From NCBI GenBank assembly GCA_016926735.1, contig JAFGOA010000044.1, forward strand, positions 1 to 30,627: a stretch of 30,627 bases of DNA, in the 5' to 3' direction. This stretch comes from Promethearchaeota archaeon (GTDB taxonomy: Archaea > Asgardarchaeota > Lokiarchaeia > Sigyniarchaeales > SOKP01). The first letter of the stretch is position 1; every line of letters starts with the position of its first letter. This document shows positions 111 through 24,434 of this stretch, piece by piece. The notes beneath the pieces were generated by a model. The model did not search any database. It worked only from the letters and a program-made list of their open reading frames with translations, and was not told where the DNA came from. The position numbers and the translations under genes were made by a program.

Positions 111-300
111 AATAGTACCTCACAGCCAGTTTTATACTATTGTATTGAGAGAATTATTTAAAGAAAAAATTAGGATAGGATGCAAAATCCAGTGATTATG
201 TCGCTTCATGAGTTTTATTTCTGAAAAGAATATTCCAAAAATCTCAATAGAAATAGATGTCATATCCTTTTTTTTAGTAAGGGTACTATTTGAACGAATC

Positions 301-3300
301 TTAAGAACCAATAAATAAATTTACTCTTTTTGTCTTTGCACTATAATATATGCGTTCAATACTAAGGTCATCTATGTCATGCCCCCATATACCGTATCGC
401 CCAAAACTCCGAGCTCTATTTAACATATTGGGTACGGTTCCGGGATCGCCTACATCTAACTCTTCCTCATCATATATTTTTTTATACCCCTCACAGATAC
501 AACGCCATAGATCCATTCTTGAAAACCCCCCTTTATTATAATATTTAAATCCGACTACAACAGAAAGAGGATAGTCAAAGTCGATAATGATTTTCTCATC
601 TGTAATAACAATTTCATCTGGATTTCGCAGGCAAGATCTTTTATCCTCAGGTGGATAGTCCGAAACTGAAAGAGAAAATCCTTTTAAGTTAAAACTCCCA
701 TCTTCCTTATATTCTATATCTGAATTTCCAACTATCGCCAGTTTCTCCTTATTTTTTAATGCTTCTGGGATTATAGTATCATAACATCTATTCAGTCCTA
801 AAAATTCAAGATTCTTAAGATGTACAATTGATTCTGGAAGTCTTGCTATTTGTGAATCATTATCTAAATTTAGAACTTGTAAGGAAACTAAATTTCCAAT
901 TGCATCTGGAATACATGTAAGAGGATTATTGCTTAGATATACTCTTTCCAATGTGTTTAGCTCTGTTATAGCTTCTGGGAAATTTGAGAAAGCATTATGG
1001 GAAAGATTCAATTCTTTAAGATGTATAAGATCTTTCATGGAAGATGGAAGGGTCTCCAATGAATTCCAGCTTAAATCTAACTTACGCAAATTTTTTAATT
1101 TAAGGATATTATCTGGAAACTCTTTCATATTTGTTTCATATAAAGATAATTGTTCAAGGAGATGTAAGTCTTTAACTGAACTTGGTAATGACGTCATATT
1201 TTCATTCGAACCCAAGAGCAACTCCTTAAGATTTGAGAGCTCTGAAATGGATTCTGGAAGTTCTTGGATATTATTGTCCCATAGACTTAATTTTTGAAGA
1301 GATTTGAGATTTATAAGCGATGTTGGGAATTGTTGTAAATTATTATTCTCTAAATAGAGGGTTTTAAGCGTTTTTATTTCAGAAATTTCATTTGGAATTG
1401 ACTCTAATTTGGAATGAGAATTATGTCCGCAGAGGCTAAGAGTCTCTAGATTTCTAAGGTTTCTTATTGAATCTGGAATCACCTCTAGAGTTTTATCACC
1501 TATAATTAGGTCTGTGAGAAATTCAAAATTAAAAAGTACGTCTGGGAGTGTTGAAATTCCACAGTTTATTAATGCCAATCCAACTACAACCCCATTTTTA
1601 ACCTTTACTCCTGAAATGTCATACGACAAATCATAAACGTATGGAATCTTACGTCCTATAGTCCCTTCTAATTCCAATATAAAATGCAGTTGCTCTTGAT
1701 TTGGTGGTTCTAATCGTGATTTGGGAATTGTATCCTTTGTATTTGATGTAACATCCTTCTTTATATAATATATTTCATGAGAATAATTCATAGAAAGGCA
1801 GAATTCACTTAAAGGAAGGGATGTCTCTTTTTTATCAGCATTAAATCCTATTATTATATTTTTAAACTCAGGCAGATTTTTTATGTTATTAAAATCGGGA
1901 TCATCTTCAGCAGATTCCCTGTATTTTGAATTCTTTTCTATTGCTTTCTGAAGAAACTGTAATGCTTTTTCATGGTGATTTTTCAGAGATTTGAGACGAG
2001 CATACATATAATAAGCAGTAGCATAGAAATGGGTCTCACTATCGAGCTCTATTATTTTTTCCAGCCATTTCTCTGCTTCTGTATACTCTTTTAGTTCCAT
2101 AAACACGAATCCCAAATCCTCCCATGCTTCATAATACTTAGGACGAAGTTCTACAGCCTTTAATAAAAGATTTTTTGCGTCTATAAACTTATCCTCATTA
2201 ATGAGTGTTTTTGCTTCTACGTACTTCCTTTTTGCTTCTTTTTCCCTCTCCGTAATCATAAAATTATTGATATTTCTAAAAAAGCGTTCTATATTTTCAG
2301 AACCTTGAAATTGGTAGGGAAGATTTGTCCATTTAAAAATTATTTTGGTTAAATTTGTTAATTCTTTTAGTCTTTGTAATTCACTTACCTCACAAAATTT
2401 TTTGTTATATGAGAAATCTATTATTTCAAGAGAGAAAAGATGTTCAAGACCACTAAGGCTCTCAATCTTATTTTCTCTTAAATTTAATACTCTAAGGCTT
2501 CTTAATGGTTCTAATCCTTTAATATCTGTAATTTTATTCTTGCTGAGATCTAAAATCTCTAAATTCTTTAGGTCGCTTAATCCTTTTATGTCTGAAATAT
2601 CTTCTATATTTCTCTTTTGAATTCTTAAGGTATTGTTAATAACCAAAAAGAATTCCCCCTTATATGTTACAAAGCTATATTCGTCTAAGATATTATAATT
2701 CTTAAGACGTTTTAGTAGATTCGCACAGCTTTGCTTAATTTCCTTATCTATAATGAGATCCGTTGTATATTGTTTTGTAGATTCTAGTAAAAAAAATTGA
2801 AACATCTCAAGTAAAAAGGCATACACATCAGCAGGCAAAGTTGCTGTGAATGAACTAAATTCATTTTTATTTAGAGTCAAAAATCTGGAAAGAATAGGTG
2901 TAAGTCTGCTAATCATCGCTTTATCAGAATCCGTATACGCTTTAACGATTATATTTTTTAACGTATCGCAGATCTTTTTTTCATGGGACGTAAATAATGT
3001 AATGAAATTTTGATCAGTAAGATACTCCAACCATCGTATATGAATTATTTCAAACAGAAATTCATATGCCAGATGAAGGACTATGTCATTTAACACTTGA
3101 TTATGCTTCAAAAAGTCAAAACCTTCATAATACCATTGTAATATATGATTAGCCTTTTCAAGTGGTCTATCGCAATACCCTTCAATAAGAGGAATAGGTG
3201 AAAATATTTTCTCTAAATGATTTGTTTCTGACGATCCAATCACATCCAGCCATTCTTCACCGTAAATAGGTATAGGAGCAGACTCCACAATAATTCTTAA

Positions 3301-4269
3301 GAGATCGTCAGTAGAACATTTATCTATAAACTCTGTAAATCTTTGTATAAATTCACTAGGTGCCTTTTTTTTAGAGATATTGAATAGCTTAGCTACCCAA
3401 TCTTGACGTTGTTCAAAAATTTCTATATACAATTGTTCATCTTTAAGAAAATTCGATATGAAAACAAAAATGTTCAATTTTTTACTGGTAAATAATCTTT
3501 TAGGATTTACCAATCGATATAAATCCGAATTAATTAAAACAATGAATATCTTTACGTCAGCACTTTCCATAAAATCTGCTATTCTATTCTGAGCAGCCTG
3601 AGGAGGATTACTAAATATTTTAGGAGAAACGATAGAATATTCTTCCCAATACCAAGACTCATCAAAATCCTTCAGAATTGAAATAAGAAATCCCAAATAA
3701 TCTAGTTCTGGGTCTTGAAGAATTTCTCTAAAATCTTCCTTAGTAATATAATAAATGAAATCGTCTTCAATAAAATCAATTAACTTTTCTTTCTCTCTTT
3801 GAATAACAATGTTATATACAATATCCTTTAAGGATGGAGAAAAACTTTCTTTATATTTTTCAATAATAGTATCAAAAAACCACAAATGAAACCAAGATTT
3901 AAAACGCTCTTCATTACTATATTTTGATTTAATTTCAAAATAAGCGTCCATTACTTTCCTACTGGGGATTTTTAGAGACAGTTCTTTATATTGGTCAAAA
4001 ATTTCGTGTATAGTATATATTAAAAAATCAATATCTCTGAGGGTAAGCATTCCTATGAAGATTTTCTCAAAGATATTTACTTTATGGTTCATTATCTCTA
4101 GGAAATCCTCACGAGTCGTTTTCTTAATTAAATCTTCAATTGCGATGTCGCAAATCGTCTCTATATCATTTTCTTCTAAAGCCTGTTCAATCTTACCTCG
4201 AAAATAGCTTGATTCTGATATTTTCTTTTCTTCTGAACCGTTCATTTCTGTCTTATTATATAATAACAT
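301..4269 (-). CDS. Large LRR/TPR multidomain protein: helical N-terminus, LRR, TPR, second LRR, uncharacterised C-terminal domain
   Basis: LRR block LKNLEILDLSKNKITDIKGL (~aa 550-650); TPR block AWEDLGFVFMELKEYTEAEKWLEKIIELD ending AEDDPDFNNIK (~aa 680-805); about 11 LxxLxLxxNxLxxLP repeats (~aa 895-1170); C-terminal GRYGIWGHDIDDL segment. Confidence 0.9.
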   Translation of the reverse strand: MLLYNKTEMNGSEEKKISESSYFRGKIEQALEENDIETICDIAIEDLIKKTTREDFLEIMNHKVNIFEKIFIGMLTLRDIDFLIYTIHEIFDQYKELSLKIPSRKVMDAYFEIKSKYSNEERFKSWFHLWFFDTIIEKYKESFSPSLKDIVYNIVIQREKEKLIDFIEDDFIYYITKEDFREILQDPELDYLGFLISILKDFDESWYWEEYSIVSPKIFSNPPQAAQNRIADFMESADVKIFIVLINSDLYRLVNPKRLFTSKKLNIFVFISNFLKDEQLYIEIFEQRQDWVAKLFNISKKKAPSEFIQRFTEFIDKCSTDDLLRIIVESAPIPIYGEEWLDVIGSSETNHLEKIFSPIPLIEGYCDRPLEKANHILQWYYEGFDFLKHNQVLNDIVLHLAYEFLFEIIHIRWLEYLTDQNFITLFTSHEKKICDTLKNIIVKAYTDSDKAMISRLTPILSRFLTLNKNEFSSFTATLPADVYAFLLEMFQFFLLESTKQYTTDLIIDKEIKQSCANLLKRLKNYNILDEYSFVTYKGEFFLVINNTLRIQKRNIEDISDIKGLSDLKNLEILDLSKNKITDIKGLEPLRSLRVLNLRENKIESLSGLEHLFSLEIIDFSYNKKFCEVSELQRLKELTNLTKIIFKWTNLPYQFQGSENIERFFRNINNFMITEREKEAKRKYVEAKTLINEDKFIDAKNLLLKAVELRPKYYEAWEDLGFVFMELKEYTEAEKWLEKIIELDSETHFYATAYYMYARLKSLKNHHEKALQFLQKAIEKNSKYRESAEDDPDFNNIKNLPEFKNIIIGFNADKKETSLPLSEFCLSMNYSHEIYYIKKDVTSNTKDTIPKSRLEPPNQEQLHFILELEGTIGRKIPYVYDLSYDISGVKVKNGVVVGLALINCGISTLPDVLFNFEFLTDLIIGDKTLEVIPDSIRNLRNLETLSLCGHNSHSKLESIPNEISEIKTLKTLYLENNNLQQFPTSLINLKSLQKLSLWDNNIQELPESISELSNLKELLLGSNENMTSLPSSVKDLHLLEQLSLYETNMKEFPDNILKLKNLRKLDLSWNSLETLPSSMKDLIHLKELNLSHNAFSNFPEAITELNTLERVYLSNNPLTCIPDAIGNLVSLQVLNLDNDSQIARLPESIVHLKNLEFLGLNRCYDTIIPEALKNKEKLAIVGNSDIEYKEDGSFNLKGFSLSVSDYPPEDKRSCLRNPDEIVITDEKIIIDFDYPLSVVVGFKYYNKGGFSRMDLWRCICEGYKKIYDEEELDVGDPGTVPNMLNRARSFGRYGIWGHDIDDLSIERIYYSAKTKRVNLFIGS

Positions 4270-4493: not shown

Positions 4494-7400
4494 TTAATAG
4501 AATTTATCAAATATCACAAGTGTTTTGTTTACAACTTCTATTAATTTGGATATATTATTAATAAATTCTGTTTTGTTAAGAATACCGCCATGACCGCTAG
4601 GATTTCTGGTAGGTGCCGCTAATTTTGCATATTCTTGAAATGTCTTTAAATTTTCGAGATTTACTATTTCTAAAAGTTTTTTCATAATGTCAGCTAATAC
4701 AGGGTCTAAATTTGGTTTTAATAAATCACCTATTAAATGTTCAATATGCCCTATTGACATATGTTGTCCATTCCATACTTTCTGTAATCCAAAGGATAAT
4801 TTATTCCAATCATCTCTAGGAATTTTAGAGCCTGGAGTATAATGTTGTTCAAGCACATCTTTAACCAATTTTGATACGGTTGCATTAAAACAGCAATCTA
4901 CTCCATTAGTTAGTTCCAGAAATATGATTCCGGTATTTTCAGTTAGATTTTCAATTGTATTCAAATTTTTAATAAGCTGTTCAGCTAACTTAAAATGTTT
5001 TAGAGCATCCGTCTCATGTACTATATTCAGATTAATGATCCCTCGTATGTGCATATCCATAAGTGTACTATGAGCAAGCATAATTTTAGTTATTTTTTCG
5101 TCACTATTTTTAAAATGATACTCAGCATCAAGATATATTTCCTTAGCTTTAATATAATTTAAGCGGAATTGGTACATTTTAGCTAGATTTAACCAAAATG
5201 TAGGATGATCAGGATCTATCTCAATTGATTTTTCAAAATATTCAATTGCAGTGTCTAATTGGATTTGATCGCTATATACCGTTCCAATATTGCATAGGAG
5301 TGAAGCTTTAAATTTTTCGTTATGGACGATATCTAACGCTTTATTAAAATATTTATGAGCTGCTTCAAAATACCCTAAATCAGCTAAAGATAACCCTATA
5401 TCACAATAAATTATATCCAGTTTTTCTACAAATTTTGTTATATATTGAGATTCGCTCAGCATCTTAATAATATGTTTATCAAACTCTTTTTCTTTGAACC
5501 AAATCATTAAAAATTGGAAGAGTGATTTGATATTACCTGAAACTTTTTGATATGTTGAATGATTTTCGATATGATATAATTTAAATAATGCATTACTTGC
5601 GAGCGAGTATTCTTGCATGAATAAATACAAAATAATAAGATATTTCTTATAATAGGTGTCGTCCGGTTTAAAAAATAGAGCATCATTAAGATAACCAATA
5701 CTAGTTTCAAAATCCTTTAAATACAGGAAAGGAAAAGCAAGTGTTTCACTAATTAATCTTAATCCCTCACGATCCCGCTCATTAATAGCCAATTGATGGA
5801 TAAGTGGTTGATATTTTAATATATATCTAAAACTGGCCATTGATTGGGAATTGAGTCCCCTATTAAGATATTTAACTAGTTCTAAAAAGTTGTCGAAATA
5901 AAAAAGCTCCTCTTCTGTATATTTTGAGAATTGTTTTTTTCTTAAATCAGCATATAAAATATAGAGTTCATACCTTAAAGCAATTAAAGGCTCTCGTTCT
6001 AATATTTCTACTGAAACAAAATCTTGTATAAAATTCAAATTATCTTTATAATGGAAGCTTTCAGAGATCATTAAACGGGGAGGAAACAATGAGAAAACTA
6101 TTTCAAAAGGATTAGTATCTTTTGACTTCATTAATTGCTTAGGCTCTAATTGAATCCTATTTAAGATTTCCCTTTCTTTTCTAAAATTTTTATTTAATCT
6201 ATACAGAATACTCTTTATAGTTAAGATCTTATATTGGATCTTTACATCCTCTGATAATTCTATCATCAGATCATAAATTTGATTCACAAACTTGAATATA
6301 TTTTTCTTTTCTGATTTAATACTAATTGTAGCAAGTAAATAAAGTAGTTCAATTTGGATTCTCGAACTTGGATCAAGAATTGAAATTAATACATCTTTTG
6401 ATTTTTTATAGGATTCCCGACATTCTTGCAGAAAGGGAATTCTCTCTGAAAATAGTAATTGAAAAGCTTCTTCACATTCATTTTGTTCTACATAACTCTT
6501 GCATAAGTATTTAATTAGGATAAAGGTTTGAATATCTTTCTTAATATTACGTGATTCTAAATAATATCTCATTAATTCTCGAATTTCTTGTAAAAATCCA
6601 AAAAAGTACCATTCAGGCAAATTTCCAATGAAATTTGAAAGAGTGTATCTCTCTTTATTATCAATTATGAAGGTAATAAAATGATCTATTCCATAAAATT
6701 TTTCTAAAAATTCTGTTCTTTTAGAAAATGATAAGAAATTAAAATAGATGAGGCTTACAATTTTTAGAATGTCTCTTTTAACCTTCACAGTCTCTAAAGG
6801 ATTTAATTCTTTTCCAATGATATCCTGAAAGTGTTCGAAATATTCATTTATTTCACTATTTAATTCATTATAATCCATAGTATCTACAATATCTTGCATT
6901 TGTTCGCAAACTAAGATATTCCATCGCTGAGCATCAATGTAATCTAAAAAATATGGATCTAATAATTCGGAAACTTCTTTTAACGCTGCTAGATAATAAT
7001 GATGCCCATTTCTATTTAAACCATATGGATTACTTGTCCAGAATAAATAATGACCATGAAAATAACCCGTAATAAGTTCCATTAGCATTGATTCTGATGC
7101 ATAAGATTCTTGGCTTTTTCCAAAGTTCATATAATATCTCCACTTCTTATAGAACCAGTATTTTTTAGATTCTGTACTGAAAAAGGGAGATGTAAAAAAA
7201 TCTGGATGACTAGAACTAATCATATTTTCAATTTTAACCTTATCCTCATAATAATTTAAATCTTTTTGAAGCTCTTTATCTATCTCTTGAGGATAGGTAA
7301 AAAACTCTTTTTCTTGAAGGAATGGTATAATAATTCGCTTAATTTTTCTTAAAGATTCTTTATCATTGCCTAATTCAGCATATATTCTACATTTAAATCC

Positions 7401-7604
7401 AGGGTCGAGTCTAAGTTTTTTTAGATATAAATTCTGATATAACATATGTTTACCAAACTCTTTATAATCTAAAGTCTTTGATTCTTCCATTTGTTTTATC
7501 CATTGAATACGTTGATAAAAGATATATTGTTCCAAAATGAAATATGGGTCAAATTTTTCTTTTAATTCGCTTTTCTTATGTTGCTTACTATTTTTAGATT
7601 TCAT
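4494..7604 (-). CDS. TPR-repeat protein with putative C-terminal HEPN RNase domain
   Basis: TPRs (IYCDIGLSLADLGYFEAAHKYFNKALD; LLCNIGTVYSDQIQLDTAIEYFEKSIEIDPDHPTFWLNLA); helical C-terminus with Rx4H motif RNPSGH (nt 4590-4607). Confidence 0.75.
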   Translation of the reverse strand: MKSKNSKQHKKSELKEKFDPYFILEQYIFYQRIQWIKQMEESKTLDYKEFGKHMLYQNLYLKKLRLDPGFKCRIYAELGNDKESLRKIKRIIIPFLQEKEFFTYPQEIDKELQKDLNYYEDKVKIENMISSSHPDFFTSPFFSTESKKYWFYKKWRYYMNFGKSQESYASESMLMELITGYFHGHYLFWTSNPYGLNRNGHHYYLAALKEVSELLDPYFLDYIDAQRWNILVCEQMQDIVDTMDYNELNSEINEYFEHFQDIIGKELNPLETVKVKRDILKIVSLIYFNFLSFSKRTEFLEKFYGIDHFITFIIDNKERYTLSNFIGNLPEWYFFGFLQEIRELMRYYLESRNIKKDIQTFILIKYLCKSYVEQNECEEAFQLLFSERIPFLQECRESYKKSKDVLISILDPSSRIQIELLYLLATISIKSEKKNIFKFVNQIYDLMIELSEDVKIQYKILTIKSILYRLNKNFRKEREILNRIQLEPKQLMKSKDTNPFEIVFSLFPPRLMISESFHYKDNLNFIQDFVSVEILEREPLIALRYELYILYADLRKKQFSKYTEEELFYFDNFLELVKYLNRGLNSQSMASFRYILKYQPLIHQLAINERDREGLRLISETLAFPFLYLKDFETSIGYLNDALFFKPDDTYYKKYLIILYLFMQEYSLASNALFKLYHIENHSTYQKVSGNIKSLFQFLMIWFKEKEFDKHIIKMLSESQYITKFVEKLDIIYCDIGLSLADLGYFEAAHKYFNKALDIVHNEKFKASLLCNIGTVYSDQIQLDTAIEYFEKSIEIDPDHPTFWLNLAKMYQFRLNYIKAKEIYLDAEYHFKNSDEKITKIMLAHSTLMDMHIRGIINLNIVHETDALKHFKLAEQLIKNLNTIENLTENTGIIFLELTNGVDCCFNATVSKLVKDVLEQHYTPGSKIPRDDWNKLSFGLQKVWNGQHMSIGHIEHLIGDLLKPNLDPVLADIMKKLLEIVNLENLKTFQEYAKLAAPTRNPSGHGGILNKTEFINNISKLIEVVNKTLVIFDKFY

Positions 7605-7833: not shown

Positions 7834-8649
7834 TCACCAAGCATAGAGACCCCCTCTTTGGATGTATTTTTTAGGATTATATGTTATTTCATTTAAGGCA
7901 CTTTCTATACCAACTTTAAAGATCGGTCTACTGAAAATATAAGAATTATTCGTATTTTGATAAAATCTCCCATAAGGATCTATCATAAGATATGATTCTA
8001 TCATCATTTGGTTAGTTTCAGCTATAGGTTTTAAGAATAGATGCCTGTTTAAAAAATTCTCAAATTCAGTATTAGAAATTAATAAGTTAGCTATATAGGG
8101 ATGATTTTGATTTTTAATTTCTAGGATTTGGAAGACTTTCCATCTTTCTGGTTTTATCCTTTTAATTAACCAAGATAAATCCTCCTGATAGTTTAATCTA
8201 TTTACAACTGTGTTTATTTTTAGTTTGATCCCAGTTTTATGAATTAAGACTGATCTTTTTATAATTTTTTTTACTAAATTTCCATTTCCTCGCCCTAAAT
8301 TGAAATTAGTTAATTCTAATCCTGAATCTATGCTAAGACCAATCCAATCAATAGATTTGCTAAATTCTTTCAGGAAATTCTTAGTAATTCCGGTTCCATT
8401 TGATATTATTGAGGTAATTAATCCTAAATTTTTACTATATTTTAGTAGATCTCCCAGAAATGGACTTAGAGAGGGTTCTCCACCAGCAAAATTAATTTTT
8501 TTAATGCCTGCATTTGAGATATCATTAATAATTTTAATACATTGATTGAAGGATAATTTAAGATTAGAACTTTCAAAGCGTGCAAAGCAATATTTACACT
8601 TAAAATTGCAATAAGGCCAAAAATGGAAATTAATACTTTCTAATACCAT
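7834..8649 (-). CDS. pVip: Viperin-family antiviral radical SAM enzyme (ddhNTP synthase)
   Basis: SINFHFWPYCNFKCKYCF (CxxxCxxC), KINFAGGEP, KLKINTVV, RWKVFQ, SYLMIDPYGRFYQN and C-terminal RGGLYAW are viperin family motifs. Confidence 0.95.
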   Translation of the reverse strand: MVLESINFHFWPYCNFKCKYCFARFESSNLKLSFNQCIKIINDISNAGIKKINFAGGEPSLSPFLGDLLKYSKNLGLITSIISNGTGITKNFLKEFSKSIDWIGLSIDSGLELTNFNLGRGNGNLVKKIIKRSVLIHKTGIKLKINTVVNRLNYQEDLSWLIKRIKPERWKVFQILEIKNQNHPYIANLLISNTEFENFLNRHLFLKPIAETNQMMIESYLMIDPYGRFYQNTNNSYIFSRPIFKVGIESALNEITYNPKKYIQRGGLYAW

Positions 8650-8682
8650 AAATTAAGTATTAATTTTACCCTTAAAAATTAG

Positions 8683-8702
8683 TCTTTAATGGCAATTAAA
8701 GA
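8683..8702. promoter_or_regulatory. Palindromic operator candidate TCTTTAAT-N4-ATTAAAGA
   Basis: Perfect 8-bp inverted repeat (8683-8690 and 8695-8702) in the divergent spacer between viperin and wHTH-CARF; a third ATTAAAGA half-site lies at 8718-8725. Confidence 0.7.
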
Positions 8703-8704
8703 GT

Positions 8705-8712
8705 ATATAAAA
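8705..8712 (-). promoter_or_regulatory. Putative TATA box of viperin
   Basis: Minus strand reads TTTATAT(A) about 55 nt upstream of the viperin ATG, immediately upstream of the palindrome. Confidence 0.45.
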
Positions 8713-8720
8713 CCACTATT

Positions 8721-8737
8721 AAAGAAATGTTTATAAA
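8721..8737 (+). promoter_or_regulatory. Putative BRE/TATA of the wHTH-CARF gene
   Basis: Purine-rich AAAGAAA followed by TTTATAAA (8730-8737), 22-29 nt upstream of ATG 8759; spacing fits a leaderless archaeal transcript. Confidence 0.55.
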
Positions 8738-8758: not shown

Positions 8759-9478
8759 ATGAAGATAAGTCTAACAAAGGAAGATTTTTCTGAAAGACAA
8801 ATTCATATTCTAGATTTATTATTCGAAAAAGAATATCAACAGAAGAATCTCCAAGAAGCTTTAAAAACTACAGCACCAAATCTATATTATCACCTAAATA
8901 AATTAGAGGAGTTAGACTTAGTTAAAAAAAATACTTTATATGAAGTAGGAAATGTAAAAATTAATATGATTTCATTAAATCCTGCTTCACGTCAGCAAGT
9001 TAGAAAATTAATTGGCAAAGAAGTCAGTAATTATGTATTAATTACGGGATTTGGAGAATTAAAGACGGGATATAGAGTTCCGGATTTGGTTTATAACATT
9101 TTAATAAAATATCATTATCCAATATCTCGTGTAATTTGTTTTACTTCTCAAGATGCAAAATCTAAAAGAATGGAATTTAAAGAGCAGGAAAATTTAATCG
9201 ATATCGATGAATTTTTTGTATATCCTTATGAAGATTATCGATTTATTGAATCCGGATTTTTTCAATCTATTGAAATAAAAATTAGCGAAGAGATGGAGAC
9301 TGCTAACATTCTTATAGATTTAACTCCATTGAGTAAATTATTTTCATTTAAATTACTTGAACTCGCAAATAAATATCAGATTCCTTGCGTATATCTTGGC
9401 ATGGATAAGCAAGGTAACGATAAATTATATTGGATGTCAAATATGAAAATTGAGGGAAAAATTGAGACATTTGATTAA
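8759..9478 (+). CDS. Transcription regulator: N-terminal winged HTH plus C-terminal CARF-like domain
   Basis: wHTH: RQIHILDLL...QKNLQEALKTTAPNLYYHLNKLEELDLVKK. CARF-like Rossmannoid pattern: VLITGFG, RVICFTSQDA, ILIDLTPLSKLFS (cf. DxTGGxK), IPCVYL. Confidence 0.75.
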   Translation: MKISLTKEDFSERQIHILDLLFEKEYQQKNLQEALKTTAPNLYYHLNKLEELDLVKKNTLYEVGNVKINMISLNPASRQQVRKLIGKEVSNYVLITGFGELKTGYRVPDLVYNILIKYHYPISRVICFTSQDAKSKRMEFKEQENLIDIDEFFVYPYEDYRFIESGFFQSIEIKISEEMETANILIDLTPLSKLFSFKLLELANKYQIPCVYLGMDKQGNDKLYWMSNMKIEGKIETFD

Positions 9479-9529: not shown

Positions 9530-10468
9530 TTGTTCTTAAGATTTAATGGTTTAAACAATGAATTTATGAAAAGAGTTTTTACAAGTAAAAATGAAAAGGA
9601 AGAAATAGAAATTATCGAAAAAAAATATAAATTATTTGAATTATATCATGACGAATTTCTCTTTAGATCATATTACGCTTATTCAATATTAAAAAGAATG
9701 AGATTATTGAAAGAAGTAGCTCTTAAAGCTCAATTTGAAGGGTTAAAAAACTACCTTAAAATATCAGATGAACAAGAAATATTATTTTCTTCTTTTATAA
9801 CACGGGAATATATTTATTTTGTTATGCCTTTTCTAAATACTATATTTATCTTACAAGATCGAATAATGATATTAATCGGTGAGTTTCTTAATATTAATGA
9901 TAAATTTGATAAATTACCAAAATACTACTATGATTATAAAAAAAAAAAAAATAAAATAATATCATTGTTTCCTAAACCACTTCAAACTTTATTAATTAAT
10001 TATTGGGAAAATCATGGAAAATTCATTAGACAATATAGAAATTTAGATCAACATCAATATCAGTTGTATTATCATTCATTTTATAAATTAAAACCCAATG
10101 AAGAGTATGTTATTTATTTACCTGATGAAATAAATCGGAATATGGCTCTACATGAAATAAAATACAAAAATAAAATTGTAGCATTGGACTTTTTTGAGAA
10201 GGAATTTAAAGCATTTCATGATTTTGTAGAAGAGATGTTAGAAAAAATTAAAATTCAACCCTCTGAAATACAACCAGGTTCCTCTTTTAGACCATTAGAA
10301 CATTTAAAAAATTATAAAAACGGAGATATCATCTCAACAATGATTATTGGTAATGAAACAATAGTTTTTCGAATAAACAATGAAAATGATCCAGATTCAG
10401 AAGCTAAACATCTTACTATACAGAAGGTTCCAAATAAAGTATCATCATTTAATTGGAAATTCAGATAA
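9530..10468 (+). CDS. Putative HEPN RNase (Cthe_2314-like pattern); start codon uncertain
   Basis: Helical protein with FLNTIFILQDRI helix and Rx4H motif YRNLDQH (nt 10037-10054). Confidence 0.65.
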   Translation: MFLRFNGLNNEFMKRVFTSKNEKEEIEIIEKKYKLFELYHDEFLFRSYYAYSILKRMRLLKEVALKAQFEGLKNYLKISDEQEILFSSFITREYIYFVMPFLNTIFILQDRIMILIGEFLNINDKFDKLPKYYYDYKKKKNKIISLFPKPLQTLLINYWENHGKFIRQYRNLDQHQYQLYYHSFYKLKPNEEYVIYLPDEINRNMALHEIKYKNKIVALDFFEKEFKAFHDFVEEMLEKIKIQPSEIQPGSSFRPLEHLKNYKNGDIISTMIIGNETIVFRINNENDPDSEAKHLTIQKVPNKVSSFNWKFR

Positions 10469-10647: not shown

Positions 10648-12759
10648 TTGATAAAAATGAAAGTCTTAAAATGTTTAAAATGTGGAAAGGATTATGATCC
10701 AGTTTTTCGAATATATGATAGTAAGGTCTTTTGTCTTAATTGTGAATCATTTCAGATTAAAAAAGAGTTAGGTCCATTTGAAGGGCTCTTCTCAATTGGA
10801 AATAGAAAGGATAAATTAAATCTTTATAAAGCAGTTGATGAGATTAAAAACCCATTTTCAATATTCTGTCATCTCTTAGGTAATCAAGATCAATTTACAG
10901 AAGAATATTTCAAATCTGGATTGTATCCAGTAGAAATTATTCGGAGATGGACATATTCTCAATATCTACTTGAGATTATTTTTAAAAATAAATTATCTAG
11001 GAATAATTTAAAAGATTTAAAAGAAAATCAATATAATATAGAAGAGATAAAGATTGTAAGAGATAAATTATTCTTATTAACTGAAAAGGCATATAGTTAT
11101 GATAGATTTTCTGAAGATTTTAAAAATAATGAATTGATTTATCTTGATAGTGGATCAAAAATAGAACTATATCTTACAAAGGATAAATTCTTTTTTTCGA
11201 CTCCAAATAACATTTATGACGCTCTTATTCAGAAAAATCCTTTCTTTTATAATAATTATGTAATGGAATGCAAGGGATATGCTCCAAATATTCTTATTAA
11301 TGTTGATTCTTCATTGCAAGAATGGTCATTAGCAACTAAAATATATACTGATATTGCCAAATTTGCCTCAATTTATCCTATCAATATCAATGAACTTAAA
11401 TATCCAGAGTTATCTGCTCAGATTTTACAGACTCATGCTTCAGAGGACATAATGAAACCAATATCACCATCATTTCCAATAATCACTATTCCTTTTGATT
11501 ATCAAAATGAGTTCATGGATATATTAAGTCGTTTTGCTGCACTTGGATTCTTTCTGAAAGGAATAGAATATTTAGGAAAAAATTTTCAGGAAAGTTATAA
11601 AGAGACATTTGATTATTTCTCAACTTCATTCAAATTTCGCAGAATTTTTTATTCCTTTGAAGATTGCTATCTTACTACATCTGAAAGATTGGAATTTTTC
11701 TCAAAACTAATAGAAAGTCAATATCAAATCTCAAAAAAAAACGAGAAAAGAAATATTAGAAATTATCGTGGCATGAAAAAATTAGAACATAATATTTGGA
11801 AATTTGGTTTTCATATAAATGTGGATCATATCTTTAAAAATAAAGAACTAATGAGGAACATTAAATTAACCAGTGCGGAGGGAGAATTAGAAGTAGATGT
11901 TGTTTTTTATAATGATAATAAGCTTGAATTTATTGAATGTAAAAGTGATGTTGCTCTTAACCTAGTTAGACAAGAAGAATATTTAAGAAAAATGAGAAAA
12001 AAAATTAAACCTCTTAAAAAATATTTTGAATCAAAAGGATATGAAGTGGAAAAAATAATTCCATCTATGATATGTGAAGTCTGTGTTACTCCCCCTCCCA
12101 AAGACATTGATATTTATCTATCAGAGATGCATCTATTTGAAGTGTTGACCAGAAGAAATGGATTATTTGAATGGGATGGAAATAAATTCTTTGATAAATA
12201 TCCAATAATCGCACGATTAGGATGGGAAAATTATCTTTATTCTGACAATATCAATATTGATTTAAGTTATCTAATACAAAATTCTAAGACTTTTCTGCGC
12301 TCTACCACAATTGATGAATTAATTAATAAATATAAATATAGAAAAGAAGACTTATCAAAATGGAGAAATCTTGATGTATTGTGCATTTATGATGAAAAAA
12401 AAAAAGAAATTATTGATTTTATAATTTTACCCCCATATTATAGGCATAATTATAATGATTCTTACACTTGGGATAAAGCACTTGAATTTCATTCTTCTTA
12501 TTATGGTCAACGGTTTCTTCATATTGCTTCTAAAAATGGAATATTTGGATTTTGTCCAGAGTGTTTAATTTTCCCATTAGTACCAGTAGGATATGCATAT
12601 AAACCTGCAAGGTTTAGTGCAGAAGGAATTTGTCCTAATTGCAATAAATCGATAGAATTAGAAGCTTTTGATAAAGCTAGCTTTCATAAAAATGAGGAAC
12701 TCCTTAAAAAAGTCAAATATTCTTTCGATAAAAGATTAGAACCATATTTAATTGATTGA
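10648..12759 (+). CDS. PD-(D/E)xK nuclease-domain protein with N- and C-terminal Zn ribbons
   Basis: CLKC..CLNC at the N-terminus; GELEVDVVFY...FIECKS catalytic motif; CPEC..CPNC at the C-terminus. Likely start is ATG 10657. Confidence 0.7.
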   Translation: MIKMKVLKCLKCGKDYDPVFRIYDSKVFCLNCESFQIKKELGPFEGLFSIGNRKDKLNLYKAVDEIKNPFSIFCHLLGNQDQFTEEYFKSGLYPVEIIRRWTYSQYLLEIIFKNKLSRNNLKDLKENQYNIEEIKIVRDKLFLLTEKAYSYDRFSEDFKNNELIYLDSGSKIELYLTKDKFFFSTPNNIYDALIQKNPFFYNNYVMECKGYAPNILINVDSSLQEWSLATKIYTDIAKFASIYPININELKYPELSAQILQTHASEDIMKPISPSFPIITIPFDYQNEFMDILSRFAALGFFLKGIEYLGKNFQESYKETFDYFSTSFKFRRIFYSFEDCYLTTSERLEFFSKLIESQYQISKKNEKRNIRNYRGMKKLEHNIWKFGFHINVDHIFKNKELMRNIKLTSAEGELEVDVVFYNDNKLEFIECKSDVALNLVRQEEYLRKMRKKIKPLKKYFESKGYEVEKIIPSMICEVCVTPPPKDIDIYLSEMHLFEVLTRRNGLFEWDGNKFFDKYPIIARLGWENYLYSDNINIDLSYLIQNSKTFLRSTTIDELINKYKYRKEDLSKWRNLDVLCIYDEKKKEIIDFIILPPYYRHNYNDSYTWDKALEFHSSYYGQRFLHIASKNGIFGFCPECLIFPLVPVGYAYKPARFSAEGICPNCNKSIELEAFDKASFHKNEELLKKVKYSFDKRLEPYLID

Positions 12760-15224: not shown

Positions 15225-16349
15225 ATGGAATTAAATAATGGAGAAGAGAATTTATTAATTAAGATCTATATTGGTCAAAGAATTAGATCTGAGGGCCTAG
15301 TAGAAAGTAGTCTAAATTCCGAAGAATTATCCAACATAAAATCTCTTATTGAGAAAAAATTAATAGAAAATTCATATTGGAAACCTTTTAGACACTATAA
15401 TTTATACTTAGTATCAAAGAAAGGAGAAGAGATTGCTAGTATATGTATTCAAAACATACTCGATAAATCTAACATAATAAAAGAAGTTAAAGAAATACCA
15501 TTAATTTTTCTAAAATTATATCTATTCCATGATGTAGATTTTTTTATACATAGAGAAGATCAAGAATTCGCAGAATTTTATTGGGATGAAGGTGAAAGAG
15601 AATTTCTTATAGAAAAAGGACAAGAAAATCGAAAAAAATTAATTAATTTATTTAAACAGCGAAATCTATGTGTCCAAAGCTATGATTATGTCTCAACTAA
15701 TGGAGGAGAATTAAGAGCTAAATATAATATTGTCCCAGAAATAGAAATAAAAGCATTTTTTGATAATACATTTGGTATTAAAGAAGGTCTTTCAGATGAT
15801 ATTCTTAAGCGATTAGTAAATGAACGTCAAGAAATAATTAAAAAAAGAGAAAATCTACTTTTTGAGGAAATTATTGATGATTTTATTCCAAAATATCCGA
15901 AAATAATAATGCAAGATCAAAAAAAAATAATGCCCTTATATGAACAGAAAGGAATATCTATTTTCTTAAGTTATTCAACTGAAGATGAAAAAATATTTCC
16001 AATTGAAGTAATAGCAGGAGAATTAAAAGTATATCATGATATTCAAGATGTCTTTTATTGGGAAAAGGATATGGATGATAATATTGTTGAATATATGGAT
16101 AAATATATAGAAAAGAGCGATATTTTTATATTATTTAGCTCTCCTAATGCAAAACTTTCGGAACAAGTTAAAAAAGAATGGACTGCAGCTGAAAGCTCAG
16201 ATAAAATAATAATACCCATTTTTGAAGTTAAAGAAGATATACCCACATTATTGAAACCAAGACGTGGGTTAAAATTCGATATCCTTAATCTTTCAAGATT
16301 CATTAATGAATTACATAAATTGATATTGAAAAAGCTAAAAATTGAGTAA
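15225..16349 (+). CDS. TIR-domain protein (C-terminal TIR, possible N-terminal wHTH)
   Basis: SIFLSYS, VFYWE, IEKSDIFILFSSPNAKLSEQVKKEW (catalytic-position Glu), KIIIPI. Confidence 0.88.
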   Translation: MELNNGEENLLIKIYIGQRIRSEGLVESSLNSEELSNIKSLIEKKLIENSYWKPFRHYNLYLVSKKGEEIASICIQNILDKSNIIKEVKEIPLIFLKLYLFHDVDFFIHREDQEFAEFYWDEGEREFLIEKGQENRKKLINLFKQRNLCVQSYDYVSTNGGELRAKYNIVPEIEIKAFFDNTFGIKEGLSDDILKRLVNERQEIIKKRENLLFEEIIDDFIPKYPKIIMQDQKKIMPLYEQKGISIFLSYSTEDEKIFPIEVIAGELKVYHDIQDVFYWEKDMDDNIVEYMDKYIEKSDIFILFSSPNAKLSEQVKKEWTAAESSDKIIIPIFEVKEDIPTLLKPRRGLKFDILNLSRFINELHKLILKKLKIE

Positions 16350-17369: not shown

Positions 17370-19304
17370 TTGTCTGTAATTACAATGTTGATTAAAACTG
17401 TGATAATAAATAATCTAAGATGTTGTAAGGAAGTAAAATTTAATTGTGACTCTCTAGTAGGATTAATCGGTAAAAATAATGTAGGAAAATCAACAATTAT
17501 TGAAGGAATAAAAAGTTTTTTTCGATCTTCAAAATCATATAATTCTGATGATTATTATGATAGTTCAAAAGCTATAAAAATTAATTTAATTTTTCATAAA
17601 CTCCACACTAAAGAATTAGAACAATTTAAAAAATATTATTACAATAACGAACTAAGTTTAACACGTATTGAATCAATTGAAGGAAGTATTAGATTTATAG
17701 GAGTGAAAAAACAAATACCTGAATTTATAGAAATAAGAAAAAAGAAGTTAGCACCAGAAAGGATAAAAGCATATCGAGAACTTTATAAGAATGCTATATA
17801 TGAAAACATGCCTGAACCAGATACAGCATGGGGTAGATTAGAAATAAAAATGCAGGAATTTGAAGAAGGATTTTCCGAAGAAGAAACAGAATTAACAGAT
17901 TCGGAAATTTCATTTATTCAAAATACACCCTTTGGAGATGAGACTGCAAGTGAAACCACTAAAATAATTTATATTCCATCTTTTTATGATATATCAAGTG
18001 AAACAATACATACGAGAGGAATTATTCAACGAATATTCAATGATTATATCAATTCATGTATTGAAGATGATAAAGAATTCCAAGAAAAACTAGAAAAAGT
18101 AGAAAATGAGATTGATAATTTATATAGGAAAAAAAGGAGACCTCTGCATTCCGAATTTATGGAAAAATTAAATAATTCTTTAAAAACATATACTGTAGAT
18201 CTTCAATGTTCAATTGACATAGATGAAATTAAATCGAATATACGATTTCCTCAACCAAGGATAACTTTTGAAGATCAATACATAAAAACAAATATTGAGA
18301 AGCAGGGAATGGGTACACAAAGATCAATTTTATTTGGATTATTTAATTTTTGGACCCAAATTACACATGAGTTATCTAATAATTCATCAGATCTACAAAA
18401 ATTAGATATTATTATGCTTATTGAAGAACCTGAAATATATATGCATCCATCAAAATGCAAGTATTTATTTAATTTATTTACAAATTTAACAGAAAGTGAA
18501 GGAAGTAACTCAGTTAATTTCCAAATTATTTATACAACACATTCTTCTTATTTCTTAAATATTATAGAGTATAATTTTATCAAATTAATAAGAAAAAAAA
18601 ATAACAGTTCAGAACATCCTCTCACAACAATAGTATCAGAATTAGATAAGGAATTTTTTATTAAAAAATATTGTAAGGAATTTTCTTGTGATTCCTCTGT
18701 TGTTACTAATCAATCAATTTGGATAAGACATTTATCTAAAATATCTAATTCATTTAATGAAGGTTTTTTTGCCAATAAGATCATATTAGTTGAGGGAAGA
18801 TCAGATTTATCATATTATTATTATCTTCAAAGTTATTTAAAATATGATTTTAATCATGAGAATATATGTTTCATTAAAGTAGATGGTAAAGAAAAATTAA
18901 AGTATATTCATTTTCTTTATTCATTATATAATATCCCTATTTTTATAATATGGGATGGTGATATTCATAATAAGGGAAACGTGTCAGCAAAATCCGCTCA
19001 AAAAAATAAAGAACTATTAAAAATAATTGGAGAGAAGGAAAAAGATTTTCCTGATAATTCTGTATATGATAAAGGTGCTATTTTTAAAGATACAATTGAA
19101 GAATATATTAAAGCAGAATTAGGTGATACAGACTTTAATAAAATCAGGAAAGATGTTGTTGATAAATTTAATTTACATGGATATGATAACCTTGAAAAAA
19201 ATTCTGAATTTGCGTATAATTTGATAGAAAGAATATATTCTGAGGGAAAAAAATTACCTTTTTTGGAAGAAATTATTCATAAAATTGCAGAAAAACAGTC
19301 CTAA
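17370..19304 (+). CDS. OLD-family ATP-dependent nuclease (ABC ATPase plus TOPRIM; GajA-like)
   Basis: Walker A GKNNVGKS, signature QGMGTQR, Walker B LIEEPEIYMHP, H-loop TTHS, TOPRIM ILVEGRSD and DGD. Likely start is ATG 17385. Confidence 0.92.
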   Translation: MSVITMLIKTVIINNLRCCKEVKFNCDSLVGLIGKNNVGKSTIIEGIKSFFRSSKSYNSDDYYDSSKAIKINLIFHKLHTKELEQFKKYYYNNELSLTRIESIEGSIRFIGVKKQIPEFIEIRKKKLAPERIKAYRELYKNAIYENMPEPDTAWGRLEIKMQEFEEGFSEEETELTDSEISFIQNTPFGDETASETTKIIYIPSFYDISSETIHTRGIIQRIFNDYINSCIEDDKEFQEKLEKVENEIDNLYRKKRRPLHSEFMEKLNNSLKTYTVDLQCSIDIDEIKSNIRFPQPRITFEDQYIKTNIEKQGMGTQRSILFGLFNFWTQITHELSNNSSDLQKLDIIMLIEEPEIYMHPSKCKYLFNLFTNLTESEGSNSVNFQIIYTTHSSYFLNIIEYNFIKLIRKKNNSSEHPLTTIVSELDKEFFIKKYCKEFSCDSSVVTNQSIWIRHLSKISNSFNEGFFANKIILVEGRSDLSYYYYLQSYLKYDFNHENICFIKVDGKEKLKYIHFLYSLYNIPIFIIWDGDIHNKGNVSAKSAQKNKELLKIIGEKEKDFPDNSVYDKGAIFKDTIEEYIKAELGDTDFNKIRKDVVDKFNLHGYDNLEKNSEFAYNLIERIYSEGKKLPFLEEIIHKIAEKQS

Positions 19305-21311: not shown

Positions 21312-24300
21312 CTAGTTTTTATAATGCACTTTTGCGAGATTAACCAGTTCAATTACCACCTGATTAAGTTCTTCCTTGGTATAATTAGGATTTATTATAC
21401 GTAATTTGTCTTTAATTTCTATTCTAATTTTGCGTTGTGTTTCGGACTTACGAGTCCAATCCACGATATTTATAAGGGGTTCAATTTTCTCTAAAATTTC
21501 ATATGTTATTTGAACAAGATCTCGATCGTCTGTTATGCCTACTTTCTCCATTTCACGTTTACAAATATTATAGAAAGCCATCTCGGCTGAATTGAGTCCC
21601 ATTGCCCGTGCTATATTAGGTCTGGCTTTTAAATCCGTTATTAAAGCTTTTAATTCTTTAATTTTGTCTGCGAGACTAATTCGTTCTTGTCGATACATTG
21701 CAATAATTTTTTCTAATCGTTCTTTTAAACTCGTATAAAATTCGGGATCTTCATCCATATTCACATTAATCTGGTGACGGAGAGCATGCTCTATTTCACT
21801 GGCTTGAGATTCAGGTCTTCTAAATTTATCCAATTTTTCCTGAAATTTGGGTGAGAGAATTGGAACAAGATCTACAAGCAGGGTAATTGAGGGAGATCTT
21901 ATATATTCATCAATCAATTTTTTAACTTTTCCACCACATCCAGCAATATTAAACCCCTCTTCACGATAGCGAGCGTTTAATCCTGCATTTAAACGCTCAA
22001 ATAGCTTTAAATCCTCTAAATATGGTTCAGCACGAGGATCGGGTAAAATTATATCGAGTGTCTGAGCAAAATTTCTAAAATCTGCTCTCAATTTCGCACG
22101 TTTCTCTTCATCATTGAATGCTAAGACCATCCCCTCCAAATCAGTTCGATCCAAGCCATTGATATCTTGCATAAGTGTGCGATGGAATTGTTCTAATCGT
22201 GGTATTTCGCTGTCAATTGGCTTCATAACGCCTTCTATATCATTCGTATCAAATATTTCTAATGCTTCCTCTAAATTAAGCGAAATACCATAATAATCAA
22301 CGATCAATCCACGAGTTTTTTGTTCATAAGTACGATTAACTCTTGCAATCGCTTGAAGGAGATTATGCTCTTTAAGAGATTTATCTAAATACATTACCTG
22401 CTCAATTGGGGCATCAAAACCGGTAATTAACATATCGCATACGATTAAAAAAGTTAAGGAATCATTAGGATCTTTAAATCGTTTAATATATTTTTTCTGG
22501 TCTGTTTTATTAATTATAAAAGGTACTTTTAATTTCTTCAACTCATTATCATATAAAAGATTGGGTGAAATAAGGACTACTGATTCAGGGGCATTAAATC
22601 GGTCCAAAAACATTTTATATTTTACAGCTAATTCCCGACTGTTAACTACGATTTGGGCTTTGAATTTATTTGGTTTTATTTTTGCTTCATAATGATCTAA
22701 AATATCTAAGCACACTTTTTTAATACGTTCTTCTGCGCCTAATAAATTAACTTTAGTAGCATATTTATCTTTTATTGCTTCCCGTTCTTCGTCTGTTTTA
22801 TCAGCAAAAACTCTATCAAATAACTGATCGATTGTACTATCTTCAATTGTTAATTCTGGGAGCCTGTTTTCATAGAGGATCTGAACGGTGACTCCATCTT
22901 CTACCGATTGACGGATGTCATATACATCAATAAATGCTCCGAATTTACTTACCGTTTTACCTCTCCCAACGATTATTTTTTCGTTCTTTTCTGTACGAGC
23001 CAGTGGAGTTCCCGTATAGGCAATAAAAAAGGCATTGGGCATGGATTTTCTCATCCGCATTGCAAAGGTCTTATATTGAGAACGATGAGCCTCATCAACA
23101 AGCACTATTATGTTCTTAGATTCATTAAGTATGGGATACCCTTGCTCCTCTTCTTTTTCAGCTTCTTCCTGTGTTTCCTTGTTTGTTATTTTGAATTTTT
23201 GTATTGTCGTAAAAATTGTTTGACCTTGACCCGTTCTAATAAGTTCTTGTAGATGCTCAGCATCTTGAGCTTCTATCGGGTTTGGAAAACCAGATGCAAT
23301 AAACGTTTGATTGAGCTGATCCACAAGATCAATCCTATCAGTAATGAATACTAAAAGTGGGTTTTCAAGTTTTGGCTCTCTTCTCATTTTTACTGAAGAG
23401 AATAACATTGTAAGAGATTTTCCACTACCTTGAGTATGCCAAATGGTACCACCACATTCTTTAGGATCAAGTATTCTTTGTATGGTTTTATTAGTTGCTC
23501 GAAATTGCTGGTATCGTGCCATCATTTTAATAAGCTTACCGTTGATTGTTTGAAAAACCATAAAATTTCGAATAAGATCTAGCAGATTATTGGGTTCTAA
23601 GAGTCCATATATAAGGATGTCCTGAGGTGTTGGCTTTGTAGTTTTTCTCCCCGTCTTTTTGATAAAATCTTCCAAATCCGATTCAGTAATAGGATAAGGT
23701 TCTTTCCATTGTCGGAAATGAGAATAGTTATTTCCTACTACTCCATAATATGATGTTAATCCTGCGGTTGCAATGATGATTTGATTATAATAAAATAATT
23801 TCGGAGCTTTTTCTTGATACATGGTTAGCTGTCTTATTCCCGGTATGATATGCTCTCCTTGTAAAATGGGACTTTTACATTCTATAACCACTAATGGGAT
23901 TCCGTTAACAAAGATTACGATATCAGGAATTATATTTCCTTTAGAAGAATTTACTTTATATTGATTAGAAACAAGAAATTCATTTTTATCAATATTTTCC
24001 CAGTCAATCAATTTGACTGGTTGTTGTCTTCGACCCCTCCCGTTCTTAATATCTTGCTCTACAGTAAAAGTATGCGGTTTGGTAAGATATCCCCAGATTT
24101 CTTGATTAAATTCGATTTCAGATACTTGAGGAATTGTAAGCATACGAAAAACTTGTTTTATGTTATACTCATTAATCCAAGGATTGAATTCTCTGATCTT
24201 GGCAGTTAATCTTTTCTTAAGAAGCACTTCTCGAAGACTCGAACGTTCTTGAGTTGGTGAGGTCTCCCTTAATTCTGCTGGCCTGATATATGTATATCCT

Positions 24301-24416: not shown

Positions 24417-24434
24417 TCTTTCCTTTTTATAAAT

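Follow-up and report, generated by a model that had tools for sequence, protein, structure and literature searches.

The locus described here raises the question whether a palindrome lying between a viperin gene and a divergently oriented regulator gene of an Asgard archaeon is a site from which both genes are controlled or a chance feature of AT-rich DNA. The stretch analysed, hereafter the window, is a 30,627-nt sequence of Promethearchaeota archaeon (Lokiarchaeia, SOKP01; assembly GCA_016926735.1, contig JAFGOA010000044.1), and the assembly to which it belongs measures 3.88 Mb at 26% G+C, is 99% complete and consists of 238 contigs. The viperin gene (pVip, a radical SAM enzyme of 271 aa) occupies 7834..8649 on the minus strand, and the regulator gene, coding for a 239-aa protein with a winged helix-turn-helix (wHTH) and a CARF domain, occupies 8759..9478 on the plus strand; their ATG codons at 8649 and 8759 delimit a divergent spacer of 109 bp. 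To our knowledge, the switching-on of prokaryotic viperins is essentially undescribed. A first-pass annotation, made from the sequence alone, had proposed that a dimeric wHTH-CARF protein binds the palindrome, represses viperin and regulates its own gene. The comparison of orthologous spacers supports the element as a conserved, putative protein-binding site at divergent promoters, and it is in our view probably the cognate dual operator of a ligand-sensing dimer that would control both of them.

Two conserved palindromes in the divergent spacer

The palindrome is composed of TCTTTAAT (8683-8690), GGCA (8691-8694) and ATTAAAGA (8695-8702), that is a perfect 8+4+8 arrangement, and is flanked by TA-g at 8680-8682 and by g-TA at 8703-8705. 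A third copy, ATTAAAGA again, is found at 8718-8725, 23 bp past the start of the right arm, and the palindrome and this copy were both confirmed on the sequence where they had been annotated. The exact arrangement TCTTTAAT-N(0-12)-ATTAAAGA occurs only once in the genome, with one everted pair on contig C56. Three copies of one 8-mer had been taken as an argument against chance, but repetition by itself proved to be weak evidence. The 8-mer is not enriched in the window (11 matches versus 9.17 +/- 3.10 in shuffles) and has 1464 copies in the 3.88-Mb genome. When the pattern was generalised to any perfect 8/8 inverted repeat with a spacer of 2-8, a third copy within 45 bp and arms of at least three different letters, 51 genomic places were found, against 16, 20 and 22 in three order-3 Markov genomes; chance would thus yield about 0.15 such triples per 30.6-kb window (about one in seven windows), or about 6e-4 for this 109-bp spacer. 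The question whether the element goes beyond chance is decided by its conservation in orthologous spacers, which does exceed chance.

Among 60 related genomes 9 have the regulator, and among 161 genomes of the class 15 do, the window's own genome (G000) counted; it also occurs on two genome-collection contigs and on 38 metagenome contigs, and was not found in any of the three same-genus genomes searched. Viperin divergently adjoins it in 17 of the 50 loci and is full-length or nearly so in 12, being fragmentary or cut by the contig end in L011, L012, L017, L019 and L020. The final 100 bp before the regulator start were aligned for 22 loci (21 distinct sequences), whose proteins are 55-89% identical to that of the window. 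Locus L051 is a repeat of L012; L016, L002 and L005, which have altered N-termini and motif-free upstream sequences, were excluded from this alignment and are counted among the 37 upstream regions considered below. The orthologues are mutually related, and all counts over them refer to non-independent events.

The alignment is free of gaps across the operator region and contains three conserved blocks in otherwise diverged AT-rich DNA. The best of them is an A/T box on the left (consensus fraction 0.94), and the other two are palindromic sites, site 1 (0.79) and site 2 (0.87). Outside, the consensus fraction is low: the seven columns that separate the sites have 0.57, and columns 80-100, the last 21 ahead of the start codon, have 0.60. 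The mean pairwise identity of the sites (0.74 and 0.79) compares with 0.45 and 0.46 in comparison columns. Both sites share the 16-bp palindromic consensus TTTAAYSGCSRTTAAA, i.e. TTTAA-N6-TTAAA with an invariant central GC, in which the centres of the two arms are 11 bp, or about one helical turn, apart. The putative operator site 1 is viperin-proximal (8685..8700, centre 8692/8693), the putative operator site 2 is regulator-proximal (8708..8723, centre 8715/8716), and their centres are 23 bp apart in every aligned sequence. Columns 8685-8689, 8692-8693 and 8696-8697 of site 1 and columns 8712, 8716, 8719 and 8721-8723 of site 2 are invariant in the 22 spacers. The dyad symmetry is kept as well: all 21 copies of site 1 have complementary bases at positions 4/13, 5/12 and 8/9, and so do 19-21 of the 21 copies of site 2.

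Site 1 of the window is the palindrome of the first-pass annotation, with unusually perfect arms. The additional copy on its right, which had been described as a third half-site, is conserved and real; however, it is not isolated, since it represents the outer half of the second full 16-bp palindrome at 8708-8723. This second palindrome has a degenerate core in the window, in which A stands at 8715 and T at 8717 in place of the G and C shared by 90% or more of the orthologues. Conservation of the motif in orthologous spacers, which the annotation had named as a check, was thus found in the form of two palindromes 23 bp apart in 22 spacers.

That the element is only a chance palindrome of AT-rich DNA, or an RNA or DNA hairpin (an attenuator or a terminator), and no protein site at all is hardly credible. 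The 8-mer is indeed common, triples of this kind arise by chance about 20 times per genome, and the palindrome can fold (-7.8 kcal/mol, z -3.7), but neither possibility accounts for a sequence and a spacing that are conserved across 22 spacers. A hairpin is further opposed by the lack of covariation in the alignment (score 0.167 versus 0.188 in shuffles, 422 out of 500 of which scored as high) and by a left arm that stays fixed while the right arm varies, unlike the two strands of a stem. The RNA hairpin was rejected on this pattern of arm variation and on the absent covariation.

In the wider set, two sites 22-23 bp apart were found in 24 of the 37 upstream regions. Twenty of these 24 were used to build a position matrix from orthologues only, the window being left out and L007 and L037 not used either; two loci added later, L052 and L053, lie outside the matrix and carry pairs 23 bp apart at the same place. 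The motif is present whether the divergent gene codes for viperin, for a ThiC-like radical SAM enzyme (L027, L028 and L030) or for another product. Other arrangements include two sites 14 bp apart (L006) and single or displaced sites (L004, L008, L039 and L040). Eight of the 37 regions are matrix-negative; three of these (L010, L032 and L033) have a different palindrome of the TAGTGGCGACTA type, which in L010 occurs twice, 23 bp apart, beside viperin, and three others (L002, L005 and L016) belong to the regulators with altered N-termini. As the motif is kept whatever the divergent gene, and as diverged clades have a palindrome of their own, motif and regulator appear to travel together, the operator changing with the regulator clade. 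The motif accompanies the regulator gene, as expected of an autoregulated cognate operator.

The wHTH-CARF protein and the layout of the promoters

As first described, the gene at 8759..9478 encodes a wHTH-CARF fusion; the ligand signature of its CARF domain is intact. The protein matches HTH_5 with 29.5 bits (cut-off 22) and the PADLOC model CARF_m5 at 1e-14, and a structure model based on 27 relatives (mean predicted local distance difference test score, pLDDT, 90.7) assigns residues 1-88 to the wHTH and residues 90-230 to the CARF domain. Residues 90-230 superpose on Can2 (Z 13.0, root-mean-square deviation 2.2, 118 aligned residues) and also on Csm6 (Z 12.8), Cdn1 (Z 12.6), Cad1 and Card1, within a range of Z 11.5-13.0, the CARF fold being recognised with a Foldseek probability of 1.0, and residues 1-88 superpose on the MarR/ArsR-type proteins CzrA, MepR, RosR and HlyU (Z 11-11.8). 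A sequence search of solved structures returned winged-helix relatives only, and the CARF part was seen only by fold comparison. The CARF signature is described as S or T where strand 1 ends and [DN]X[ST]XXX[RK] after strand 4 (PMC4012209). Among 27 sequences, T96 (in LITGFG) is nearly invariant, and D187-L-T189-P-L-S-K193 has invariant D, T and K residues.

Two regulator genes appeared damaged. That of L004 (genome G044) contains two in-frame TAA stops, and L004 was left out of the protein alignments; that of L011 is apparently broken. The L011 contig (JANBVM010000002.1) is labelled as a Patescibacteria metagenome-assembled genome, yet its regulator is of the Loki type (68% identity) and is accompanied by the operator pair and by the TPR gene described below; the contig is probably mis-binned.

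The two sites are enclosed by two A/T boxes. The left one, the best conserved block of the alignment, faces viperin on the minus strand (8669..8679 with its flanking CC; A/T part 8672-8679), and 26.5 bp separate its centre from the viperin ATG. The right one is the TATA-like box TTTATAAA of the putative regulator promoter (8730..8737, plus strand), whose centre is 25.5 bp from the regulator ATG and which is preceded by a purine-rich sequence (8723-8729) resembling a TFB recognition element (BRE). The right-hand copy of the 8-mer does lie within the purine-rich stretch just before TTTATAAA, as first annotated, and an A/T box is present at this position in the orthologues as well (consensus fraction 0.70). 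The left box occurs beside divergent genes other than viperin, too, and in the loci inspected by eye its CC is at a constant 19-20 nt from the divergent start codon while the intervening bases differ. The distance from start to start is 108-111 bases in all 15 loci that allowed both starts to be assigned. From the end of each site to its A/T box the distance is 5-6 bp, and the site centres are about 43.5 bp from the respective start codons. No Shine-Dalgarno (SD)-like sequence was found before either the viperin or the regulator ATG; SD sequences are reportedly uncommon in Lokiarchaea (PMC12993045). From the box-to-ATG distances, the constant spacing and the SD-less ATGs, the left box is probably the TATA box of the viperin promoter, and the local geometry suggests two outward-facing promoters that probably give leaderless mRNAs on both sides.

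The first-pass annotation had placed the TATA element of viperin elsewhere, on the minus strand at about 8705-8712, with the palindrome downstream of it. If viperin were transcribed from this TATATAAA element, the start would lie about 26 bp downstream, at about 8682, and the palindrome between TATA and start would be a classical roadblock operator. The element does exist in the window, where it has arisen in the degenerate inner half of site 2. It is not conserved, however, as it falls into columns 43-49, where the consensus fraction is 0.57 and the orthologues are quite different, and the conserved box at 8672-8679 keeps its constant distance from the divergent start codon in the loci inspected by eye. 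Transcription from 8705-8712 is therefore unlikely, and with the conserved box on its other side the palindrome would lie just upstream of the TATA/BRE of viperin.

A putative dual switch, its sign and its precedents

In the dual-operator model, the two palindromes would take up the centre of a constant-length control region that runs from one start codon to the other. A homodimer of the wHTH-CARF protein, held together by its CARF domains, would occupy each palindrome with one winged helix per TTTAA arm, and the two dimers would sit 23 bp, or about 2.2 helical turns, apart. Each site overlaps the BRE position read by TFB, so that a bound dimer would compete with TFB/TBP or contact them. Since the sites end so close to outward-facing TATA boxes, one protein could control both promoters together, that of viperin, perhaps with the TPR/HEPN gene, on one side, and that of the regulator's own operon, with the open reading frame (ORF) behind it, on the other. 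As the CARF domain keeps its nucleotide-binding signature, a cyclic oligonucleotide or a related alarm molecule would be expected to change DNA binding; the ligand in the conserved CARF pocket would then switch both promoters together. What we infer comprises the binding of the protein, its dimeric state, whether it represses or activates, the ligand and where transcription starts.

The closest precedent by analogy is Csa3b, described as a CARF/wHTH repressor that acts in Sulfolobus/Saccharolobus from a pair of palindromic repeats, named RI and RII, immediately upstream of the BRE/TATA of a type I-A interference promoter (PMC5389559). The two systems share the combination of CARF and winged helix, two tandem imperfect palindromes just upstream of BRE/TATA and an association with an immune gene cassette, and the pair is conserved among relatives in both (two copies in 20 of 25 Sulfolobaceae for Csa3b). 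DNA binding by Csa3b is reported to be modulated by a nucleotide-type ligand (PMC7480081), whereas ligand control is here only expected from the CARF signature. The domain order is reversed, with wHTH (1-88) before CARF (90-230) in our protein and CARF before wHTH in Csa3. The half-sites are TTTAA-N6-TTAAA instead of the TTTTC-N8-GAAAA given for Csa3b, the targets are viperin and other non-CRISPR effectors, and the two sites would serve two divergent promoters. Unlike at Csa3 loci, no cas family was found among the ORFs of the window and no Cas10/RAMP in the assembly, and the PADLOC Csa3 model matches only the HTH part (residues 12-90, 1.3e-5). Because of the reversed domain order and the lack of cas context, the system, although it would work like Csa3b or Csa3a, is not a member of the Csa3 family.

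The N-terminal domain is of the type found in ArsR/SmtB and MarR repressors, as indicated by the HTH_5 match above cut-off and by the superposition on CzrA, MepR, RosR and HlyU. Proteins of these families typically bind palindromic operators as dimers, and ligand-controlled autorepression is typical of them as well. The sensor here is a C-terminal Rossmann-like CARF domain, in place of a metal site or a pocket for small molecules inside the winged-helix dimer.

Csa3a is described as a CARF-wHTH dimer that binds cyclic tetra-adenylate (cA4) and acts as an activator, although the same account reports that specific or cA4-dependent DNA binding of Csa3a could not be shown in vitro (PMC8699464). 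With Csa3a and its CAPPa palindrome, as presented there, our system shares a conserved palindrome just upstream of the BRE/TATA of immune genes and the co-occurrence of motif and regulator across genomes. CAPPa, however, is a single 18-bp TCCC-N8-GGGA element found at several loci and defining a regulon, whereas the present pair is found at one locus only.

Several findings weigh, wholly or in part, against a dual operator that represses in answer to a cyclic-oligonucleotide signal. The canonical pair is absent from 13 of the 37 upstream regions. With 19.7 bits in the orthologue-derived matrix, site 1 is the top match of the 3.88-Mb genome, which is barely above the best of two random genomes (17.0 and 18.9 bits), so that the case rests on position and orthology and not on score. 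Site 2 of the window reaches 9.2 bits, under chance-level genomic matches and compared with 14.3-27.6 bits in 20 orthologues, and in this genome the regulator may exert weak control over its own promoter. Among 1618 long ORFs, with the start taken crudely as the first ATG, no TATA peak was seen about 26 bp before the starts; an SD-like peak was seen at -14 to -10. No match to Cas10 (Cmr2, Csm1), RAMP or SMODS (PF18144) was obtained in the 238-contig, 99%-complete assembly; CRISPR regions are often missing from such assemblies, and the negative Cas10/RAMP search therefore does not show absence. Archaeal activators, such as Ptr2 and TrmBL1, bind just upstream of TATA/BRE. Csa3b, too, is reported to activate cmr genes, and a cyclic oligoadenylate analogue to enhance its DNA binding (PMC7480081).

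The matrix gave no excess of matches in the genome, with 40 at 10 bits or more versus 50 and 57 in random genomes, and two at 16 bits or more versus two and four. The next-best matches are mostly within ORFs or on a 3.2-kb contig without ORFs. The second-best of all, 17.9 bits at position 2034 of contig C28 (3.2 kb) of G000, is within the chance range and has no ORF of at least 80 aa within 400 bp. A regulon, which was to be defined by a genome-wide scan for the annotated motif, did not emerge, as the exact pattern occurs only here and matrix matches occur at chance frequency. The putative switch thus appears to be a local one, and no wider regulon was found by exact-pattern and matrix scans of the genome.

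These counts also bear on whether the sites, though conserved, are bound by another factor, such as a chromatin protein, a general protein or some other regulator, and not by the adjacent wHTH-CARF protein. The outer halves overlap purine-rich BRE-like sequence and could be read by TFB itself. A factor of this kind is nevertheless improbable, since the motif stays with the regulator gene when the neighbours differ, changes with diverged regulator clades (L010, L032 and L033; L008, L039 and L040) and is not above chance elsewhere in the genome.

As to the sign of regulation by the wHTH-CARF protein, the most likely logic, and the one we lean towards, is repression in the resting cell that is relieved on signalling. 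Three points favour it: both TATA boxes come close to consensus, the winged helix belongs to the ArsR/MarR type, and Csa3b represses from two palindromic repeats. The same sites and protein could also act as an activator that recruits TBP/TFB to both promoters, perhaps only when the ligand is bound, which would mean alarm-induced viperin and positive autoregulation. The site centres, about 43.5 bp from the starts and directly upstream of TATA/BRE, would suit such a role, and the Csa3a palindrome is placed 12 bp upstream of the BRE of genes that Csa3a is described as activating (PMC8699464). On the other side, both A/T boxes are near consensus and well conserved, which suits strong basal promoters in need of silencing, the wHTH has its matches among ArsR/MarR-type proteins, most of which are repressors, and Csa3b represses, as reported, from the same kind of position (PMC5389559). 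Activation is less likely than repression, but it is the chief alternative and a serious one.

Signal, changing cargo and significance

A cyclase beside the regulator was found in two orthologous loci. A CBASS-type oligonucleotide cyclase gene follows the regulator gene after 20-23 bp in L003 (689-1474, minus strand) and L031 (1144-1584, plus strand), with PADLOC Cyclase matches of 2.7e-23 and 1.2e-12, respectively, and a weak SMODS Pfam match; in L003 viperin is located on the other side of the operator. CBASS-like signalling pairs such a cyclase with the sensor; in the window's own genome no CD-NTase/SMODS cyclase was found, and in its assembly no relative of the L003 cyclase. Five other regulator-bearing genomes contain either a clear Csm1 (G021 and G124) or only weak Cas10-like matches (G090, G079 and G053), and in G124 the Csm1 gene is about 12 kb from the regulator orthologue.

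The viperin assignment is based on a 287-bit match to NF038283 (cut-off 180), a PADLOC pVip match of 1.2e-86 and the CxxxCxxC radical SAM motif CNFKCKYC. Behind it on the same strand lies the gene of a 1036-aa TPR protein (4494..7604, minus strand; PADLOC TPR PDLC02907, 4.4e-20) with a C-terminal RNPSGH, an Rx4H motif that is HEPN-like. Viperin with a TPR protein is described as an archaea-only type of defence system (PMC12988326), and as in that system pVip has a PDLC02907-type TPR protein beside it on the same strand, so that our TPR protein is probably the partner in the archaeal viperin and TPR system; its gene is possibly co-transcribed with viperin. The regulator and the putative operator would add a layer of control to the published account, the main text of which (PMC12988326) does not mention CARF. 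In L002, L011, L012, L019, L024 and L034, the TPR orthologue directly follows the regulator gene and not viperin; the placement of the TPR gene thus differs among loci, and the cassette has therefore been rearranged between lineages. Decayed viperin genes were observed beside an intact operator and regulator, with 24-90 residues left in L011, L012/L051 and L020 and two pieces in L017.

On the other side, an ORF for 312 aa (9530..10468, plus strand) begins 52 bp 3' of the regulator gene and has orthologues in L017 and L029. It belongs to no curated family, contains an RNLDQH motif and gave a language-model match (0.94, to be taken as a lead only) to Cthe_2314-like HEPN; it is possibly a HEPN-type effector in the operon of the regulator. 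The following ORF (10648-12759, plus strand) likewise belongs to no curated family and has weak PADLOC matches (about 5e-4) to the nuclease part of CARF-PD-(D/E)XK proteins.

The divergent cargo changes between loci. In L027 (3-878), L028 (923-2206) and L030 (3-881), all on the minus strand, a ThiC-family radical SAM enzyme replaces viperin at the dual operator, with a PF01964 match of 4.6e-110 in L028, where a methyltransferase gene follows (192-926, minus strand). Under the same switch, the ThiC-like enzyme may represent another kind of nucleotide-modifying effector. Other genes were seen behind viperin, namely those of a helicase of about 790 aa (AAA_11; PADLOC MkoA-like, 6.8e-20) and of a 393-aa protein of no family in L014, L018, L020 and L029 (1633-4020 and 450-1631, minus strand, in L029), and in L025/L026 (1-3825, minus strand) that of a protein longer than 1275 aa, which matches STAND NTPases weakly. 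Directly after the regulator of L013 (1724-3901, plus strand), lie the genes of an anaerobic ribonucleotide reductase activase and of an NrdD that is split into two ORFs, a neighbour from nucleotide metabolism.

The window as a whole is a defence island. Its remaining defence genes (15225-16349, 17370-19304, 21312-27135 and 301-4269) code for a TIR-domain protein, an OLD/GajA-like ATPase-TOPRIM protein, a complete type I restriction-modification system and a 1322-aa LRR-TPR protein, and a gene for a YgjP-like peptidase adjoins the restriction-modification system.

Control of immune genes by dedicated regulators has parallels elsewhere. Animal viperin is an antiviral gene induced via cGAS-STING-interferon. 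Prokaryotic defence islands have the wHTH-WYL regulators CapW/BrxR, of which CapW is described as a repressor. The resemblance of our system to both would be one of logic only, an infection signal leading to transcription of an immune gene, as the sensors are not homologous. In the literature searched, no link of viperin to a CARF- or Csa3-type regulator was found, and viperin and Csa3 were mentioned together only through Csa3 in a reference title. The Asgard viperin literature looked up mentioned neither CARF nor helix-turn-helix, regulator or promoter.

We tentatively propose that the wHTH-CARF gene and its dual operator form a portable sensor-switch cassette that makes viperin and interchangeable effectors (the TPR/HEPN protein, helicases, the STAND NTPase and the ThiC-like radical SAM enzyme) inducible in Loki-type Asgard archaea, the signal being a cyclic-oligonucleotide alarm from Cas10 or from a co-encoded cGAS-like cyclase. 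If this is true, an Asgard archaeal viperin, a relative of the human interferon-induced enzyme, would be under second-messenger control. The finding would then define a reusable regulatory cassette, whose changing divergent cargo could lead to new effectors, such as the ThiC-like radical SAM enzyme.

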